64,000 nt of DNA from Candidatus Woesearchaeota archaeon (GTDB taxonomy: Archaea > Nanobdellota > Nanobdellia > Woesearchaeales > WAPY01), in the NCBI GenBank assembly GCA_049700835.1, contig JBNAUL010000002.1, positions 222,999-286,998 of the forward strand, in the 5' to 3' direction. The notes under the pieces are model-generated. The model had not been told where the DNA came from. It worked only from the letters and a program-made list of their open reading frames with translations, and did not search any database. Shown in pieces: positions 29,578-52,507 of this stretch (the first letter of the stretch is position 1; each line of letters starts with the position of its first letter). A program made the position numbers and the translations under genes.

Positions 29578-30102
29578 ATGAAAAAGGAAGTTGTTCTAAA
29601 GATTAAAAGATTGGACAAAGGACTTGAAATTCCTAAATACATAAACGAAACAGATGCAGGGCTTGATTTAAGGGCAGCAAAAGATGTAGTGATAAAACCT
29701 CATGAACAAAAAACAGTTAATTGCGGAATTGTCATTGAAATTCCAGAAGGCTGTGTTGGGTATCTAAAAGACAGGGCAGGAATTGTTACTAAAATGAATG
29801 TCCATGTAGTTGCAGGAACAATAGACTCTGGCTATAGAGGAGAGGTTTCTGTTGTCCTCTTCAATTTAGGAGAAAGGGAAGCAATGATTGAAAGAGGAAT
29901 GAGAATTGCTCAAATGATAATAATACCTGTAATAAGGGTTAAAATTCAAGAGATTGACAGCGTAAGTAAGACAAAGAGGAGCAACAGGGGATTTGGAAGT
30001 ACAGGAATTAAGGAAATAAGCAGCGAGAAATTTGAAGAGGTTGAAACAGAATTGAATAAACTCTACGAAGAAGGTATTAAGAACAGCAAGTTGCGTAAGT
30101 AG
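29578..30102 (+). CDS. dut: Trimeric dUTPase
   Basis: DAGLDL, GTIDSGYRGE, RIAQ, R..RGFGSTG motifs. Confidence 0.92.
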   Translation: MKKEVVLKIKRLDKGLEIPKYINETDAGLDLRAAKDVVIKPHEQKTVNCGIVIEIPEGCVGYLKDRAGIVTKMNVHVVAGTIDSGYRGEVSVVLFNLGEREAMIERGMRIAQMIIIPVIRVKIQEIDSVSKTKRSNRGFGSTGIKEISSEKFEEVETELNKLYEEGIKNSKLRK

Positions 30103-30267
30103 GACAGAGCATAAAAATCTTAAAAGAAAAAAACAAGGTTGCATGAAAAAGCAGTCAATGAACCTTTAAAGCATAAATCAGTTTATTTAACAAAAAGTGT
30201 TCTCAAAAAAATTTAATCAATTCTCAATGGAAAAATTTAAATAGTGCTTCTAAACACTTTCAGAGGC

Positions 30268-30459
30268 ATGGGAAGAATAAAAACAGCGATGATTAAAAGA
30301 ATCAGTGAAGAAATATATGAAAAGTATAAGGAAAAGGTAAGCAAAGATTACGAACAGAACAAGTTACTAGTAGAAAGTTTGATAAGCAACAATTCAAAAA
30401 AGCTTAGAAACACAATAGCAGGCTATGTTACAAGGCTAGCAAAGAAAGGAGAAATATAA
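30268..30459 (+). CDS. rps17e: 30S ribosomal protein S17e
   Basis: MGRIKT..IKR, SKKLRNTIAGYVTR. Confidence 0.95.
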   Translation: MGRIKTAMIKRISEEIYEKYKEKVSKDYEQNKLLVESLISNNSKKLRNTIAGYVTRLAKKGEI

Positions 30460-30500
30460 AAAAATTAGAAAAGACAAAAAGAACAAGGAGGGTGGTTTAA

Positions 30501-30782
30501 ATGGCAGCAGACAACTCAATATTTGTCGGCAACAAACCGTTTATGAACTATGTAACAGCAGTTGTGATGCAATTCACAACAAAGAATGTGCCTGAAGTGA
30601 CAGTAAAGGCAAGAGGAAAGTTTATCAGCAGAGCTGTAGATGTCGCAGAGGTTGCAATGAAAAGGTTCTTGAACAACCAAGTGAAGGTGAAAGAGATAAA
30701 GATTGACTCAGAAGAGTTTGAGAACAAGGAAGGAAAACAGGTAAGGGTTTCAACAATCGATATAACCCTTTCAAAGAAATAA
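30501..30782 (+). CDS. albA: DNA/RNA-binding protein Alba
   Basis: VGNKPFMNYV, KARGKFISRAVDVAE, VSTIDI; GGAGGGTG SD. Confidence 0.96.
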   Translation: MAADNSIFVGNKPFMNYVTAVVMQFTTKNVPEVTVKARGKFISRAVDVAEVAMKRFLNNQVKVKEIKIDSEEFENKEGKQVRVSTIDITLSKK

Positions 30783-30894
30783 AATCAGATTTTGCATTTT
30801 TCTTTTTATTTATTTTTAATTTGATTTCTTAAATTTTATGAATAATTTTAAATACTTCTAATAATAAAATCATCTAATCAATTTTGCTAATTTT

Positions 30895-30967
30895 GGGCCT
30901 GTAGCATAATCAGGAAGTGCATCCGGCTTCGGACCGGACTATCAGGGTTCAAATCCCTGCAGGCCCG
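30895..30967 (+). tRNA. tRNA-Arg(TCG)
   Basis: GGGCCTGTAGCATAATCAGGAAGTGCATCCGGCTTCGGACCGGACTATCAGGGTTCAAATCCCTGCAGGCCCG cloverleaf; anticodon arm TCCGG-CTTCGGA-CCGGA. Confidence 0.95.
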
Positions 30968-31107
30968 TAAAGGGACTGCAGACCAGGAATGACTAAAAGG
31001 AATGACGCTGCCTGCAGGCCCGTAAAGGGACTGCAGACCAGGAATGACTAAAAGGAATGACGCTGCCTGCAGGCCCGTAAGGAATTGGAGACTAATAATG
31101 AGTGAAA
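30956..31107 (+). repeat. 55-bp tandem repeat containing the last 12 nt of tRNA-Arg(TCG): two exact units plus a degenerate third
   Basis: CCTGCAGGCCCGTAA begins at 30956, 31011 and 31066; the first two 55-bp units are identical. Confidence 0.95.
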
Positions 31108-31223
31108 TTTAAAATAATAAAAAATTAGAAAAATTAATATACCATTTATTTTAGTTTTTTTAAATAATAATATTTTATAGTACAATTAATTTATTACATA
31201 GGTATAGTTTATTTATGATTTAT

Positions 31224-31296
31224 GGCGGTAGTGGCGTAATGGTTAGCGTGGAGGCCTGTGGAGCCTCAGGAGGGGGTTCGATTCCCCCCTACCGCC
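31224..31296 (+). tRNA. tRNA-His(GTG) with encoded G-1
   Basis: GGCGGTAGTGGCGTAATGGTTAGCGTGGAGGCCTGTGGAGCCTCAGGAGGGGGTTCGATTCCCCCCTACCGCC; G-1:C73 pair. Confidence 0.95.
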
Positions 31297-31881
31297 CTAA
31301 TAATTAAAATTGTATCTGCTCTTATTGTTGAAGAATGTTTTTTTGATAACAAGTTCTCCTTCCAATCTTATAGAATATTCGTGCTTAATTCCTATGTTTT
31401 GATCCTTGTCTGAGAAAACAAAATAGAGAATGTTTCTCTTTAAAGAGTATCCAAAACCGCTAACATTGGTTTCAAGCCCATTTTCTTCAAGCGCTTTGTT
31501 TGTTATTCTTGCAATTTCCTTTTCAAGCGTCAAGATTGTTTGCTTCAAAATCTTTGATATTATTACTTCAATATGCTCTGCTGAATTTCTATCATTGATC
31601 AAGCTCTCCAAGTTAAAATGAGGAATCTTGTTTTGAGTTATCATTTCATTGCTCTTTAATGAAATCTCTTCTTTTATTTCTTTTTTTTCATCAAGAAGTT
31701 TTTTATGATATTCAATGAATTTGTTTGGAATTGCCTGCATTCCTTTAACAACAGCATAATACTGAAAAGAATTATTTATTTGAGTTTTGATTATTGGAAC
31801 TCTTGAATTAAAATAAATTTCATTTGGTTTTTTAAAATTATATTCTATGCTCAAACCCTTGTTTTGATTAACTTCTTCCAT
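31297..31881 (-). CDS. Hypothetical protein
   Basis: About 195-aa ORF downstream of purB; stop codon abuts the tRNA-His 3' end. Confidence 0.6.
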   Translation of the reverse strand: MEEVNQNKGLSIEYNFKKPNEIYFNSRVPIIKTQINNSFQYYAVVKGMQAIPNKFIEYHKKLLDEKKEIKEEISLKSNEMITQNKIPHFNLESLINDRNSAEHIEVIISKILKQTILTLEKEIARITNKALEENGLETNVSGFGYSLKRNILYFVFSDKDQNIGIKHEYSIRLEGELVIKKTFFNNKSRYNFNY

Positions 31882-31927
31882 GGAAGCAGTATTATTAAAC
31901 AATTATAAAAATTTTTTGAAATTCAAA

Positions 31928-33292
31928 TCAAAAATCATTTCTTGCAATCTTATCAGCAATTCCATAGTAATCCTTTGGGTCTAATTTTAAAAAATCATCT
32001 TCTATGTTTTGTGGCAGATTGAGTTTTTTTATAATATTCCTAAATTCTTCAATGTTCATTTTCCTGCCTTGAACTTCTTGTCTAAGAATTTCATAAGCAT
32101 TCTCATAACCTAATGTTCTTAGTTTTGTTTGAACTGCTTCTGCTAAAATCTCTGCGTGCTCGTTAAGTTCAGAACTAATTTTTTCTTTGTCAACATCTAT
32201 TTTTTCCAAACCAAAAATTATTTTTTTATAAGCCAAGAGAGAATGCCCGTAAGCAACTCCATAGTTTCTCTTAACTGTTGAATCTGATAAATCCCTTTGA
32301 TATCTTGAAATAACAATTTTGTTGGAAAATAAATCGAACAATGCATTGGAAGTTTGAAGATTTCCTTCAGCATTTTCAAAATCAATTGGGTTTATTTTGT
32401 GAGGCATAACTGAAGAGCCAATCTCATTTTTGTTTTTTAGCATTAAATAATCAATCGAGATGTAATTCCAAATATTTTGTGAAAAATCAATTAGAATGGT
32501 GTTTATTCTAATAATGTTTTGAAACAATTCTGCTTGCCAATCATTAGGTTCTTTTTGAGTTGAGAAAGGATTAAACTTAAAATTAAACTTAATAACAAAT
32601 TCCTTTGCTAATTCAATCCAATTTAAATCAGGAATAGCGTAGTAAAAAGAATTAAAGTTTCCTGTGCTTCCTGAGAACTTAACAAAATATTCTTGATTTT
32701 CAAGCTTGATTTTTTGAGTTTTTAATCTTTCACAATAATTCCTAAATTCTTTGCCAAGGGTTGTTGGAGAAGCAACTTGGCCATGAGTTCTTGAAAGCAT
32801 AACTATGCTTGAATACATTTCTGCAAAATCATTAAGTTTTTCTATGATTAGTTCTAAGTTTTCTGATAAAATTTTATTTCCCTTTCTAAGCATGCTCGCA
32901 ATTGCCAAATTATCAACATCCTCAGAAGTTATTCCAAAATGAATAAAAGCATAAAGTTCATCAGGGTAATCTTTAATCTTTTCTTTTAAATTAATTCTCA
33001 AAGCAAGTTCTATTGCCTTAACATCGTGGTTTGTGGGTTTTATGTTCTTATAACCGTTTGTTTCAATCTGCTTAACAAGATTGTAATCAACATCTATTTC
33101 CTTAATTCTATCAATTAGTTCTTTTTTGCGATCGTCGTTTAAATTCAATGTTTTTATTATTTCTTTTTCCAACAGAAAAATCAGCCATTCCTTCTCATAA
33201 AAAATTCTCTCTTTAACATAATTACTTTCACTAAAAATAGTGTCAAGTTCTTTAACTAATTCATAATACCTGTCATCTAATGGAGAGAGCAT
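31928..33292 (-). CDS. purB: Adenylosuccinate lyase (E. coli-like subtype)
   Basis: LSPLDDRY, TNHDVKA, TSED, RTHGQ.ASPTT.GKE, GSSVMPHKINPIDFENAEGN, QRDLSDSTV.RN. Confidence 0.95.
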   Translation of the reverse strand: MLSPLDDRYYELVKELDTIFSESNYVKERIFYEKEWLIFLLEKEIIKTLNLNDDRKKELIDRIKEIDVDYNLVKQIETNGYKNIKPTNHDVKAIELALRINLKEKIKDYPDELYAFIHFGITSEDVDNLAIASMLRKGNKILSENLELIIEKLNDFAEMYSSIVMLSRTHGQVASPTTLGKEFRNYCERLKTQKIKLENQEYFVKFSGSTGNFNSFYYAIPDLNWIELAKEFVIKFNFKFNPFSTQKEPNDWQAELFQNIIRINTILIDFSQNIWNYISIDYLMLKNKNEIGSSVMPHKINPIDFENAEGNLQTSNALFDLFSNKIVISRYQRDLSDSTVKRNYGVAYGHSLLAYKKIIFGLEKIDVDKEKISSELNEHAEILAEAVQTKLRTLGYENAYEILRQEVQGRKMNIEEFRNIIKKLNLPQNIEDDFLKLDPKDYYGIADKIARNDF

Positions 33293-49533: not shown

Positions 49534-49607
49534 GGACCTGTAGCCTAGTCTGGAAGGGCAACAGCCTTCTAAGCTGTGGGTCGAGGGTTCAAATCCCTCC
49601 AGGTCCG
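49534..49607 (+). tRNA. tRNA-Arg(TCT)
   Basis: GGACCTGTAGCCTAGTCTGGAAGGGCAACAGCCTTCTAAGCTGTGGGTCGAGGGTTCAAATCCCTCCAGGTCCG cloverleaf; anticodon arm ACAGC-CTTCTAA-GCTGT. Confidence 0.95.
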
Positions 49608-49854
49608 TTAGGAACTGGAGACCAGGAATGACTGAAAGGAATGACGCTNNNNNNNNNNNNNNNNNNNNNNNNNNNNNNNNNNNNNNNNNNNNNNNNNNNN
49701 NNNNNNNNNNNNNNNNNNNNNNNNNNNNNNNNNNNNNNNNNNNNNNNNCCTCCAGGTCCGTTAGGAACTGGAGACCAGGAATGACTGAAAGGAATGACGC
49801 TGCCTCCAGGTCCGTAACAAGGTGAAGGAACTGAAAACTAAGAATGACTAAAAG
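49596..49854 (+). repeat. 54-bp tandem repeat containing the last 12 nt of tRNA-Arg(TCT); spans an N gap so copy number is unknown
   Basis: CCTCCAGGTCCG at 49596, 49749 and 49803; same core as the 30956 array; degenerate tail at 49827-49854. Confidence 0.9.
49649..49748. other. Assembly gap (100 N) inside the tRNA-Arg(TCT) repeat array
   Basis: Run of N. Confidence 1.
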
Positions 49855-49972
49855 ATTTGGTTTACTTTAAGTTCTAAATTATCTATTTTTTTATCTACTA
49901 CAAAATAACAATTGTGATAAGTATTTTTTACAATAAAAAAGGTTTTATATTTTCTAATCATTTTTTAAATTT

Positions 49973-50398
49973 GTGGCAAGAATCAACTATGAAAGAAAAG
50001 AGATTTTATGTATAGAACAAAAATTTGAAGAACTTAGGAGATTCTATGAAAAGGTTTACCAAAATAATAAAGATGGTCATTTTCATTTCAGCACTGCACA
50101 AGATTTAATTAAATTTAAAGAAAAGAATTCTGAGCAAAGAGATTTTGTTGAAAAAAACATTTATTTCTTAATAGGATTGGAAAGGTTAAAAGAAATTGCT
50201 GGTTTAGAAGAGAAAATAGTTTTCTTAGAAAAAGGAAACTTAAGAGAAATTGAGAAAAATGTTCAAGAAGAATACAACTCAACCTATTATCCTGTTTGTT
50301 ATATTTTGGACAAAAATAAAAAGAGATTAGTAGTAGCTAACTATGAAAAGAGTTTTCAGCAAGGAGGTCCTGAAATAATTGTTCTTAATGAAGAATAG
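49973..50398 (+). CDS. Hypothetical protein
   Basis: 141-aa ORF with GTG start; TATA-like TTTTATA upstream. Confidence 0.6.
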   Translation: MARINYERKEILCIEQKFEELRRFYEKVYQNNKDGHFHFSTAQDLIKFKEKNSEQRDFVEKNIYFLIGLERLKEIAGLEEKIVFLEKGNLREIEKNVQEEYNSTYYPVCYILDKNKKRLVVANYEKSFQQGGPEIIVLNEE

Positions 50399-50732: not shown

Positions 50733-52507
50733 CTATACTTTACAACAACACTTATTAGGAGGACAAGATTCGTATGTTCTGACATCAAAGCATAGATATT
50801 CATATTTACATGTAAGATTATTAAGCCAAGTATTGCAAATATCGCACTTTTTATCAAATATTATATCTAAAAGTATACTATTCTTAACTATTAAGGTTAT
50901 TTTTCCTTCATCGCATAACTCATAACAAATAAAATCATTTCCTACATAACTGGTATTTTGTTTTAATGATTGGTTTATTTGAAGATTAGTTTTATTAAAA
51001 TATGCTGCAACCCAACTTNNNNNNNNNNNNNNNNNNNNNNNNNNNNNNNNNNNNNNNNNNNNNNNNNNNNNNNNNNNNNNNNNNNNNNNNNNNNNNNNNN
51101 NNNNNNNNNNNNNNNNNNAAAACTACTACCATTATAACTTAATATAATGGCATCTGCTAAACCTGGGCTGCCTCCAGGTAGCAAACTATTATAACAGTTA
51201 CGCATCACTAATCCTGGGCTGTTATTATTTTTAAAATAATTTTCAATTTTAGAATCGCATTTTGAAAGATTTCCATTGCACAAAACAGTAAAAACGCTTT
51301 TCAAGAAATCACATTTTTTAGTGTTGTTGGATAGATTTATAGGACTTTCTTTAAAACAAAATATATTCGTTACTTGTTGATCTTGGATTTTATAAGTGAT
51401 TGTGTAATTTTTTGTTAATAAAATGCATTCAGAAGTGTCAAACTTGCAATTATTGCATTTCAAATTTCCTCCTATAAAATTATAGCCAAGATTATCTTTT
51501 AAATCATAGCAATTTTTTCCATCTAAGTTATCTTTTTCACATTCCTCTCCAGAATCATAATTTATAACTCCGTTTCCGCATGTATTTTCACAAACTCCAT
51601 TGTTGCAAAAACCTGTGCAATTATTGCACTTTGATTTTGCTTCATGATTTTCAATATGACAAACACATATTTCATTATCTTTGCAATAAGATTGTGAATC
51701 ATTGTATTTTTCTTCACAATGCAGTTCAACGCACTTATTATTGTAACAAACTTGTGTTTCTAAGCAATCCTCATTTTTTAAGCATTCAACGCACTTATTC
51801 AAATTATAATTGCAAACTCCTCCTTTACAGTCATTATTGGAAGTGCATTCAACGCATCTTCCTGTGCTAAAATTGCAAACTAGTGGAGAGCAATCATCAT
51901 TAAAATAACATTTTTTAATACAAACCCCTTTTTCAGAGCAAAACTCATCTTGCAAGCATTCATTATTTTCCTTGCAAAATCTTGTTTGCGGAGGAATTTC
52001 TTCTAAATAAACCTCCTTGCCCAAACCTACTAATAAAATTTCTGCCTCCTCCTTTGTTATTGGAAAACAATATATTCCTTCTCCGACAAAAACCTCTCCA
52101 ACGTAAAAGCTTTCACGGTTTGGAAACAAAAAAAGGTTTTTATTAATTCCTTCTTTTATTATAGAGCAAACCAGGGCTTTTTCTTTTGAATATACATCAG
52201 AACTTGGGGCTAAACTGCAATACAACTGCTTAAGGTTTTCATCATCTAATAAGGACTTATCAACAAAACACATGTACTTTGTGTTTTCAGGAACCTTCAA
52301 TGTTATTTTCTCGCTGAAATCCATGTTTTCTGAAATTTCTGATATTCTTGATTTAAGATTAGTGTAAAACTCAGTTAGTTGAGCTTTTTCTCCTGATTTT
52401 TTTAGATTAGAAATCACTTTGTAACCCAAAATTATGGTAAATAACAAAATAGCAGCAATGAAGGCAATCAAGAAAACCATTTGAATCTGCGCTTGTTTAC
52501 TCTTCAT
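50733..52507 (-). CDS. Class III (pilin-like) signal peptide, Cys-rich surface protein; interrupted by a gap
   Basis: MKSKQAQ followed by a hydrophobic helix; repeated C..C..C..C modules; after the gap an open frame (SWVAAYF...CPPNKCCCKV) runs to TAG at 50733, replacing the track's end at 50975. Confidence 0.75.
51019..51118. other. Assembly gap (100 N)
   Basis: Run of N. Confidence 1.

Follow-up and report, generated by a model that had tools for sequence, protein, structure and literature searches.

Two arginine tRNA genes of a Woesearchaeota archaeon are followed by tandem arrays that reproduce the 3′ end of the preceding tRNA at the close of each unit. Both lie in a window of 64,000 nucleotides (nt), positions 222,999 to 286,998 of the forward strand of contig JBNAUL010000002.1 (assembly GCA_049700835.1). 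The host genome, here called G000, is 1.07 Mb in size, 98.66% complete and assembled in 4 contigs. Behind both tRNA-Arg(TCG) and tRNA-Arg(TCT), the array begins within the 3′ end of the tRNA and continues on the same strand, and each intact unit carries a complement of the tRNA tail, a hairpin with tandem G.A pairs and a new copy of the tail. The arrays are real and exceed what chance produces. The most plausible account, which is held tentatively, is that they are tRNA-trailer arrays like the RtT repeats of Escherichia coli, in which a structured module is repeated, is co-transcribed with the tRNA and varies in number through slippage.

Organization of the arrays

In the following, S denotes the last 10 paired nt of the tRNA, S′ the complement of S and S0 the tRNA's own copy of S. 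At the TCG locus, Tandem Repeats Finder delimits a repeat at 30956-31080 with a period of 55 nt, 2.3 copies, 100% matches and a score of 250, which starts with the last 12 nt of tRNA-Arg(TCG). Here S is CTGCAGGCCC (30957-30966), made up of three T-stem nucleotides and the 7-nt 3′ strand of the acceptor stem, and S′ is GGGACTGCAG (30972-30981), separated from S0 by GTAAA (30967-30971). S and S′ form nine Watson-Crick pairs out of ten and one A.G mismatch, and GGGACTGCAG also matches the 5′ end of tRNA-Arg(TCG) itself at 8/10 positions. A unit reads, in order, discriminator G, TAAA, S′, ACCA, the 21-nt GGAATGAC-TAAAA-GGAATGAC, GCTGC and S, with 43 nt separating successive S copies. At the TCT locus, S is CTCCAGGTCC (49597-49606) and S′ is GGAACTGGAG (49611-49620). 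The 12-nt copy of the tRNA tail, discriminator included, is found in every unit at both loci and in those of the sister species, G003. The features of both arrays are listed in Table 1.

Table 1. Positions of the two tRNA-Arg genes, the units of their trailer arrays and associated features, numbered from the first letter of the window.
Feature	Position	Strand	Basis and contents
tRNA-Arg(TCG) gene	30895..30967	+	ARAGORN; Rfam tRNA 65.2 bits; S0 at 30957-30966
Unit 1 (TCG)	30968..31022	+	linker TAAA; S′1 30972-30981; tandem-GA hairpin 30986-31006; GCTGC; S1 31012-31021; G copied from discriminator
Unit 2 (TCG), identical to unit 1	31023..31077	+	S′2 31027-31036; tandem-GA hairpin 31041-31061; S2 31067-31076
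Decayed terminal (third) unit (TCG)	31078..31115 (end approximate)	+	S′ remnant GGAATTGGAG; GA part decayed
First T-rich run after tRNA-Arg(TCG)	31149..31161	+	T4 (at +180), then T7 (T5 at +186)
tRNA-Arg(TCT) gene	49534..49607	+	ARAGORN and sequence; S0 at 49597-49606
First unit (TCT), cut by gap	49608..49648	+	linker TTA; S′ 49611-49620; tandem-GA hairpin 49625-49645
Scaffold gap of 100 N inside the array (TCT)	49649..49748		sequence; only units flanking the gap countable
S copy and full unit (TCT)	49749..49813	+	S 49750-49759; S′ 49764-49773; tandem-GA hairpin 49778-49798; S 49804-49813
Decayed terminal unit (TCT)	49814..49870	+	13-nt linker resembling G003 unit 2; S′ remnant GGAACTGAAA; GA part decayed

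Several counts set the arrays apart from chance. A 24-nt core of the repeat occurs four times in the window, against zero occurrences in 100 shuffles, and across the 1.07-Mb genome it is confined to the two tRNA-Arg loci. Among the 40 predicted tRNA genes, only the two tRNA-Arg have direct copies of their last 12 nt downstream, and a 10-mer that complements the 3′ end lies within 40 nt of these two alone; a script scored them at 8/10 and 9/10 (by eye, both reach 9/10), and the other 38 score at most 7/10. A strict regular expression for the double G.A hairpin matches seven sites in G000, four of which are array units, while ten Markov shuffles give 0-3. At a separate locus of the genome (L215, G000:C1:7219-7239), an 8-mer that is directly repeated after 5 nt also conforms to the pattern of the double G.A hairpin, and an Rfam scan of it came back empty. 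A coding reading of the arrays was rejected, as a 55-nt period cannot be divided by 3 and the sole open reading frame (ORF) over the TCT array crosses the N gap. Between 30000 and 32000, only two tRNAs reach the gathering score in Rfam.

The gap inside the TCT array was probably caused by a repeat that could not be assembled. The genome contains 1800 N in total, which amounts to 18 runs if every run is 100 long like the one at 49649-49748. The window holds this run, which lies within the tRNA-Arg(TCT) array, and another at about 51020-51120.

Complementarity between the tRNA tail and the trailer

Owing to the difference between the two tRNAs, S differs at two positions between the loci. At positions 3 and 8, S′ has changed together with its partners, from G-C to A-T and from C-G to G-C, which makes two double compensatory changes. 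All six intact units of G000 and G003 retain the same A.G mismatch, and across the arrays of the two genomes the spacer between S and S′ measures 4, 5 or 13 nt. The outermost, decayed S′ at the TCG locus, GGAATTGGAG, is nearer to the TCT-type than to the TCG-type S′; because it is still TCT-like, the inner S′ copies must have become fitted to the local tRNA. This decayed unit shares its downstream flank with the sole trailer element kept at the TCG locus of G003, to which it is orthologous. As judged from these comparisons, the complementarity of S and S′ is maintained by compensatory change, and the re-fitting of the tail complement to two different tRNAs shows that pairing with the tail sequence matters.

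A hairpin with tandem G.A pairs

The 21-nt element folds into a hairpin in which the two GGAATGAC copies pair as G-C, G.A, A.G, A-U, U-A, G.A, A.G and C-G around a 5-nt loop, whose first and last bases are often pairable too. Between the TCT array of G000 and unit 2 of G003, the hairpin differs at 6 of 21 positions and the structure is kept in all six: two pairs have changed on both sides (C-G to G-C and U-A to C-G), one U-A has become U.G and one change falls in the loop. The hairpin of G003 is no longer a direct repeat, yet it pairs, so the conserved object is a folded single strand and not a set of half-sites in double-stranded DNA. Unit 1 of G003 contains a shorter hairpin, in which only one G.A/A.G step surrounds a 2-bp stem that is capped by an AAA loop.

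An alignment of 11 distinct hairpin copies from four genomes gives the same picture. Pairing is possible in 92.3% of the cells (those that remain unpaired are alignment artefacts, caused by 4-nt loops and one shifted column), three of the five pairs show changes on both sides, and the covariation score is reached by none of 500 shuffles. Partners slid out of register pair in only 35-56%. The tandem G.A/A.G steps are invariant in the copies compared.

Tandem sheared-type G.A/A.G steps beside a short loop-capped helix are reminiscent of kink-turn and K-loop motifs, which are bound by L7Ae, as in box C/D and H/ACA small RNAs and RNase P RNA. The genome has two genes of the L7Ae family, at G000:C2:386935-387207 and G000:C2:200136-200387. 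In contrast to a kink-turn, however, inspection finds no register with a 3-nt bulge and a complementary C stem; instead, the helix is symmetric, with two G.A/A.G steps. On a speculative note, the G.A-rich tip probably binds a protein. Two classes of small RNA were considered for the unit and rejected. Its size (50-60 nt) fits a box C/D RNA, but boxes C (RUGAUGA) and D (CUGA) are absent and no C/D family matches in Rfam between 30000 and 32000; for H/ACA, no pseudouridylation pocket is apparent by inspection.

Likeness to the RtT repeats

Behind the tyrosine tRNA genes tyrT and tyrV of E. coli, the RtT repeats form a tandem array, each unit of which closes by repeating the 3′ end of the tRNA; co-transcription with the tRNA and release by processing are presumed. 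Their units are far longer than the 55-nt archaeal units. To our knowledge, these tail-regenerating repeats have been known for decades without an accepted function. Like RtT (rttR, RF00391), the archaeal arrays consist of tandem units directly behind the tRNA, on the same strand, each ending in a copy of the tRNA tail. Unlike RtT, they carry in addition the tail complement and the tandem-GA hairpin, and the RtT covariance model has no match between 30000 and 32000 (cmscan, E up to 10). A 2024 preprint describes rtT RNA as involved in processing of the tyrT transcript and as likely linked to the stringent response, with a mode of action that is unknown (10.1101/2024.07.17.603846). The archaeal array is a variant of a known, unexplained kind of element, and its hairpin motif is newly defined; no account of such arrays or of the tandem-GA hairpin in archaea turned up in the literature searched.

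A course of events that would link these features begins with transcription of the array together with tRNA-Arg. We infer this co-transcription from the lack of a T-run ahead of the array. The distance to the first T5 is 186 nt for tRNA-Arg(TCG) and 278 nt for tRNA-Arg(TCT), with the gap counted, against a median of 37.5 nt over 40 tRNAs, and the TCG transcript likely ends at the T-rich run at 31149-31161, as far as the sequence can tell. The tRNA would fold first and RNase Z would cut it off. In the freed trailer, each S′ would then pair with the downstream S, so that every unit forms a long, rod-like hairpin whose foot resembles an acceptor stem and whose tip is rich in G.A pairs. An anti-acceptor hairpin, in which S′ pairs with the S upstream, would be the other register of the same repeat, and hence an unavoidable by-product and competitor rather than a designed switch or sensor. 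Slippage or recombination among the S copies would make copy number drift and could remove all units, as at the TCG locus of G003. Among processing enzymes, the genome encodes RNase P RNA (120.4 bits) and RNase Z (352.9 bits; G000:C1:101185-102069); a search of it for a HARP-type protein-only RNase P gave no PIN_5 match.

The arrays constitute an archaeal and very compact (55-nt) case of tail-regenerating repeats, which should be easier to work with. They go beyond the classical E. coli case in that the tail complement has been re-fitted to two tRNAs and in that a defined tandem-GA hairpin recurs in several DPANN lineages. The hairpin offers a concrete handle on what binds or processes such trailers, while the compact unit allows a test of the effect on tRNA maturation.

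Predicted competing folds of the tRNA and its trailer

An earlier note on this DNA, made from its letters alone, had proposed that the tRNA-Arg(TCG) trailer can form an anti-acceptor hairpin that excludes the cloverleaf, either as a conformational switch controlling maturation of tRNA-Arg or as a DNA hairpin recognized for insertion or duplication. The coordinates and pairing that it gave for CTGCAGGCCC, GTAAA and GGGACTGCAG, for the next copy at 31012-31021 and for the second locus at 49597-49620 are all correct. It made no mention of the decay of the terminal third unit, of the conserved hairpin that makes up the rest of each unit or of the 100-N gap in the TCT array. S′ does have two mutually exclusive partners: the upstream S, which for unit 1 is the acceptor/T-stem strand of the tRNA, and the downstream S, which together with S′ encloses the tandem-GA hairpin in one long rod.

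Nearest-neighbour folding, which ignores tertiary structure, modifications, transcription order and cleavage, puts the probability of the acceptor stem at 0.999 for the bare tRNA; appending S′ lowers it to 0.88, and it is 0.02 when one unit follows and 0.04 when two do. In states without the acceptor stem, the 5′ strand of the tRNA pairs with a distal S copy. With constraints, the cloverleaf with two long hairpins has an energy of -66.6 kcal/mol and the anti-acceptor register one of -70.1 kcal/mol, and the minimum of -70.2 kcal/mol keeps the cloverleaf; the competing states lie within 3.6 kcal/mol. Over constructs with 0, 1 and 2 units, then, the cloverleaf is not dominant in silico, and no T-run is present that would end transcription ahead of the trailer.

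These values invite a reading in which S′ opens the acceptor and T stems of the newly made tRNA-Arg and thereby delays maturation, until it pairs with the next S copy and the cloverleaf is restored; the balance between the two pairings would set the output. The predicted ensemble indeed shifts strongly with a single unit, and the anti-acceptor register is favoured over the cloverleaf with two long hairpins. At either locus, S′ has stayed complementary to its own tRNA, the A.G mismatch, which is conserved, would leave S′ weaker than the true 5′ acceptor strand, and both arrays stand behind arginine tRNAs. However, the effect is shared by other tRNAs: of 29 intron-less tRNAs of G000, 7 likewise fall below an acceptor-stem probability of 0.35 with ordinary 130-nt trailers, in a model that leaves out the four factors named above. 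No sensor- or aptamer-like conserved element is visible, and the region from 30000 to 32000 has no cis-regulatory match in Rfam. The conserved part is a plain G.A-rich hairpin that is also found far from any tRNA, G003 lives without units at its TCG locus, and the arrays behind tRNA-Leu genes of a more distant genome (G408, described below) have no S′. Such a switch is therefore unlikely; what stands of that proposal are the exclusive helices and the complementarity that has been kept, and not the control of maturation.

Covariation cannot separate the two registers because both use the same S and S′.

Arrays in related genomes

The sister species G003 no longer has units behind tRNA-Arg(TCG), and behind tRNA-Arg(TCT) it has two unequal ones, of 47 and 63 nt. 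TCG units are also missing from a contig of a related population in a public DNA run, another public DNA run has a variant unit in which a TCG-type S is followed by TT, and contigs from four public DNA runs break at the array. Expansion likely proceeded by slippage between S copies, a process that would account for inner units being identical and outer ones decayed, for the disappearance of the TCG units from G003 and for assemblies that break. An 11-nt word common to unit 1 of G003 and to G000 lies within a 95-aa ORF in G000 and was set aside as chance.

In two other genera of the family (L166 of G004 and L162 of G001), tRNA-Arg(TCT) has a copy of its last 10-13 nt at a distance of 70-85 nt downstream. 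The insert in these genomes is a different one, with another conserved hairpin and a T-loop-like remnant before the tail copy, and with neither S′ nor tandem-GA element. G005, which belongs to the genus of G004, has no tail copy or insert behind tRNA-Arg(TCT). By these comparisons, a second copy of the tRNA-Arg tail is a recurrent, labile feature of the family.

When a tRNA gene is followed by direct copies of its last 10-13 nt, these resemble attL/attR repeats, and direct repeats of tRNA 3′ ends are a classical footprint of integration. The arrays could accordingly be scars of attachment sites, with the S copies as attL/attR-type repeats, S-spacer-S′ as the inverted-repeat core and the GGAATGAC pair as arm-type sites. 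The imperfect inverted repeat of S, spacer and S′, the direct repeat GGAATGAC-N5-GGAATGAC and the tail copies in the other genera would suit this idea, which is nonetheless highly improbable. Unlike att sites, the arrays have a tandem period of 55 nt, with only the 43 nt between copies and no integrated element, they stand among housekeeping genes, and neither the genome nor the family has an integrase. The spacing of the inverted repeat varies, and spacers of 4, 5 or 13 nt are unsuited to a recombinase core. In the G003 variant of the hairpin, pairing has been retained although the direct repeat is gone. In 2.9 million viral contigs, the double-GGAATGAC pattern occurs at 15 loci, none of them related.

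Searches for recombination enzymes point in the same direction. Tyrosine recombinase (PF00589) and Y1 transposase (PF01797) are each matched in 0/5 genomes of the family, whereas control genomes as well as G402, G403, G252 and G168 do have matches to these enzymes. For Y1 transposase, there are 13 matches in G402, 2 in G403, 1 in G252, 1 in G168 and none in G408. Mobility in the family could consequently not be driven by a resident enzyme of either kind. A hairpin element derived from IS200/IS605 (PATE/REP-like) was rejected on the ground that Y1 (HUH) transposase is absent from all five. Together with the spacers, the same counts weaken the other suggestion of the earlier note, a DNA hairpin serving as a recognition site for insertion.

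The hairpin in other lineages

Outside the family, the tandem-GA hairpin occurs in a Woesearchaeota metagenome-assembled genome (MAG), G402, which has 22 matches to the hairpin pattern against 3 for a reversed control. There, it belongs to an element of 250-350 nt found at no fewer than 12 dispersed loci, at least, between L178 and L203 (e.g. L198:1400-1624 and L190:1445-1717). The element consists of a constant 5′ part, one to three tandem 49-nt units and a constant 3′ part ending in a T-run, each unit being a 7-8-bp hairpin followed by a tandem-GA hairpin. The loops of the tandem-GA hairpins are of five kinds, and the closing pairs remain complementary. Flanking genes are unrelated housekeeping genes, often with the element beside divergent gene starts, and no gene family is associated with it. 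The genome has 9 integrase matches in addition to its Y1-transposase matches. Elsewhere in G402, at L197:1495-1540 and L210:2105-2150, a long helix with four successive tandem G.A/A.G steps lies in a larger structured non-coding region. A 21-mer of this helix is also present in G518, G056 and G063, the L210 copy is about 700 nt from a Y1 transposase gene, and Rfam has no match for it.

A Pacearchaeota MAG has two copies of the hairpin in a larger structured region, one of them closed by a 13-bp outer stem and the other with an A-U pair changed to G-C. By analogy, the outer stem would favour the long register for the arrays of G000. G252 and G168 have one hairpin copy each.

G408, which belongs to a different family of the same class, has arrays behind tRNA-Leu(CAG) and tRNA-Leu(TAA) (L246:350-616 and L246:3577-3815). 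Each of the two genes is followed by two units of 105-110 nt and a partial one, with two alternating unit types common to both loci. The units end in a copy of the last 16-25 nt of the tRNA, and immediately behind each copy there is a tandem-GA hairpin; S′ is absent. The strand that bears the G.A pairs is antisense to tRNA-Leu and sense to convergent downstream ORFs, and the stop codon of a convergent ORF falls within the hairpin.

Broader searches returned little else. Allowing at most one mismatch, the hairpin has five single matches in 401 genomes of the phylum (400 others besides its own) against three in the control, which is chance level. With a looser pattern applied class-wide, 58/401 genomes match, of which only G408, G252 and G168 look genuine. 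Most of these looser matches were discarded as a coding motif, since they represent one single-copy sequence that varies at codon third positions. A coding mimic of the type GGAATGATGATTGGAATGAC is present, for example, at G219:C11:4686-4705 and in about 20 other genomes, and is a trap for pattern searches. In genome contigs, GGAATGAC-N5-GGAATGAC is found at 120 loci or more, at least, nearly all of which are 13-nt microsatellites or chance; among the matches listed, only L040 and L121 (from one MAG) and L099 are relevant. Metagenome contigs gave one match, an unrelated 13-nt tandem repeat. Rfam, at E up to 1, finds nothing in the Woesearchaeota and Pacearchaeota loci or in two other loci of G000 itself. 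From these sequence searches, the exact hairpin motif appears to be rare and to occur in scattered DPANN lineages.

Possible selfish repeats and self-amplifying elements

The dispersed element of G402 brings up an alternative that is less probable than a trailer array but still deserves weight, namely a selfish or neutral DNA repeat without RNA function. In this scenario, the module arrived behind one tRNA-Arg and spread to the second, hairpin-promoted replication slippage and gene conversion between the S copies amplify and homogenise it, and the fitting of S′ to S is molecular drive, as better palindromes slip and amplify more. Units that are 100% identical within an array would be expected, as would the two loci of G000 being more alike in their hairpin (a difference at 1/21 positions) than orthologues of the two species (6/21). 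The fall of copy number to zero in G003, the decayed terminal units and the public assemblies that break at the array also fit, and so does the insert of the other genera, a different one that again ends in a copy of the tRNA-Arg(TCT) tail. In G402, the hairpin sits in an element of at least 12 dispersed copies amid housekeeping genes, in a genome with transposase and integrase matches, and in G408 the module is opposite in orientation to the tRNA. Against this stand the 0/5 family genomes with a tyrosine recombinase or Y1 transposase and the hairpin differences between G000 and G003, all six of which keep the structure; without selection on the folded single strand, this is unexpected in a lineage that lacks such an enzyme. 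Even if the arrays were only selfish DNA, they would neatly illustrate how repeats expand at tRNA genes where the usual recombinases are lacking.

A further idea, which is improbable, is an undescribed self-amplifying structured DPANN element, acting as RNA or single-stranded DNA, that settles at tRNA 3′ ends, uses the acceptor strand of the host tRNA to form one of its helices, re-fits its complement to each tRNA and couples its propagation or processing to the maturation of tRNA-Arg. If true, this would make it a tRNA parasite or tRNA regulator of a novel type, independent of all known recombinases.

The reading as a trailer array transcribed with its tRNA is itself exposed to several objections. 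In G408, where the hairpin is antisense to the tRNA, a simple module co-transcribed with the tRNA fails. The hairpins of the two G000 loci resemble each other more closely than those of the two species, which requires gene conversion or recent transfer, and such similarity of arrays within a genome would be seen with a selfish repeat too. A hairpin of single-stranded DNA would equally be expected to change in ways that preserve its structure. In G402, the short hairpin of the S-S′ type is invariant and the outer closing stem is variable, which by analogy would favour the short register. It is doubtful that RNase P or RNase Z recognizes the unit as a tRNA-like minihelix, because the unit is without a T loop. 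Public RNA runs carrying the locus were sought and none was listed; transcription, processing sites and stability are thus inferred.

Genomic setting

The genes surrounding the arrays are housekeeping genes, encoding Alba (30501-30782), ribosomal protein S17e, dUTPase, adenylosuccinate lyase, topoisomerase VI A and B and a HAD hydrolase. No mobile-element genes were found near the arrays among the neighbouring genes in the window. On the 3′ side of the TCT array, there is an ORF of 141 aa without a Pfam family (49973-50398, + strand), the position of which is conserved in G003.

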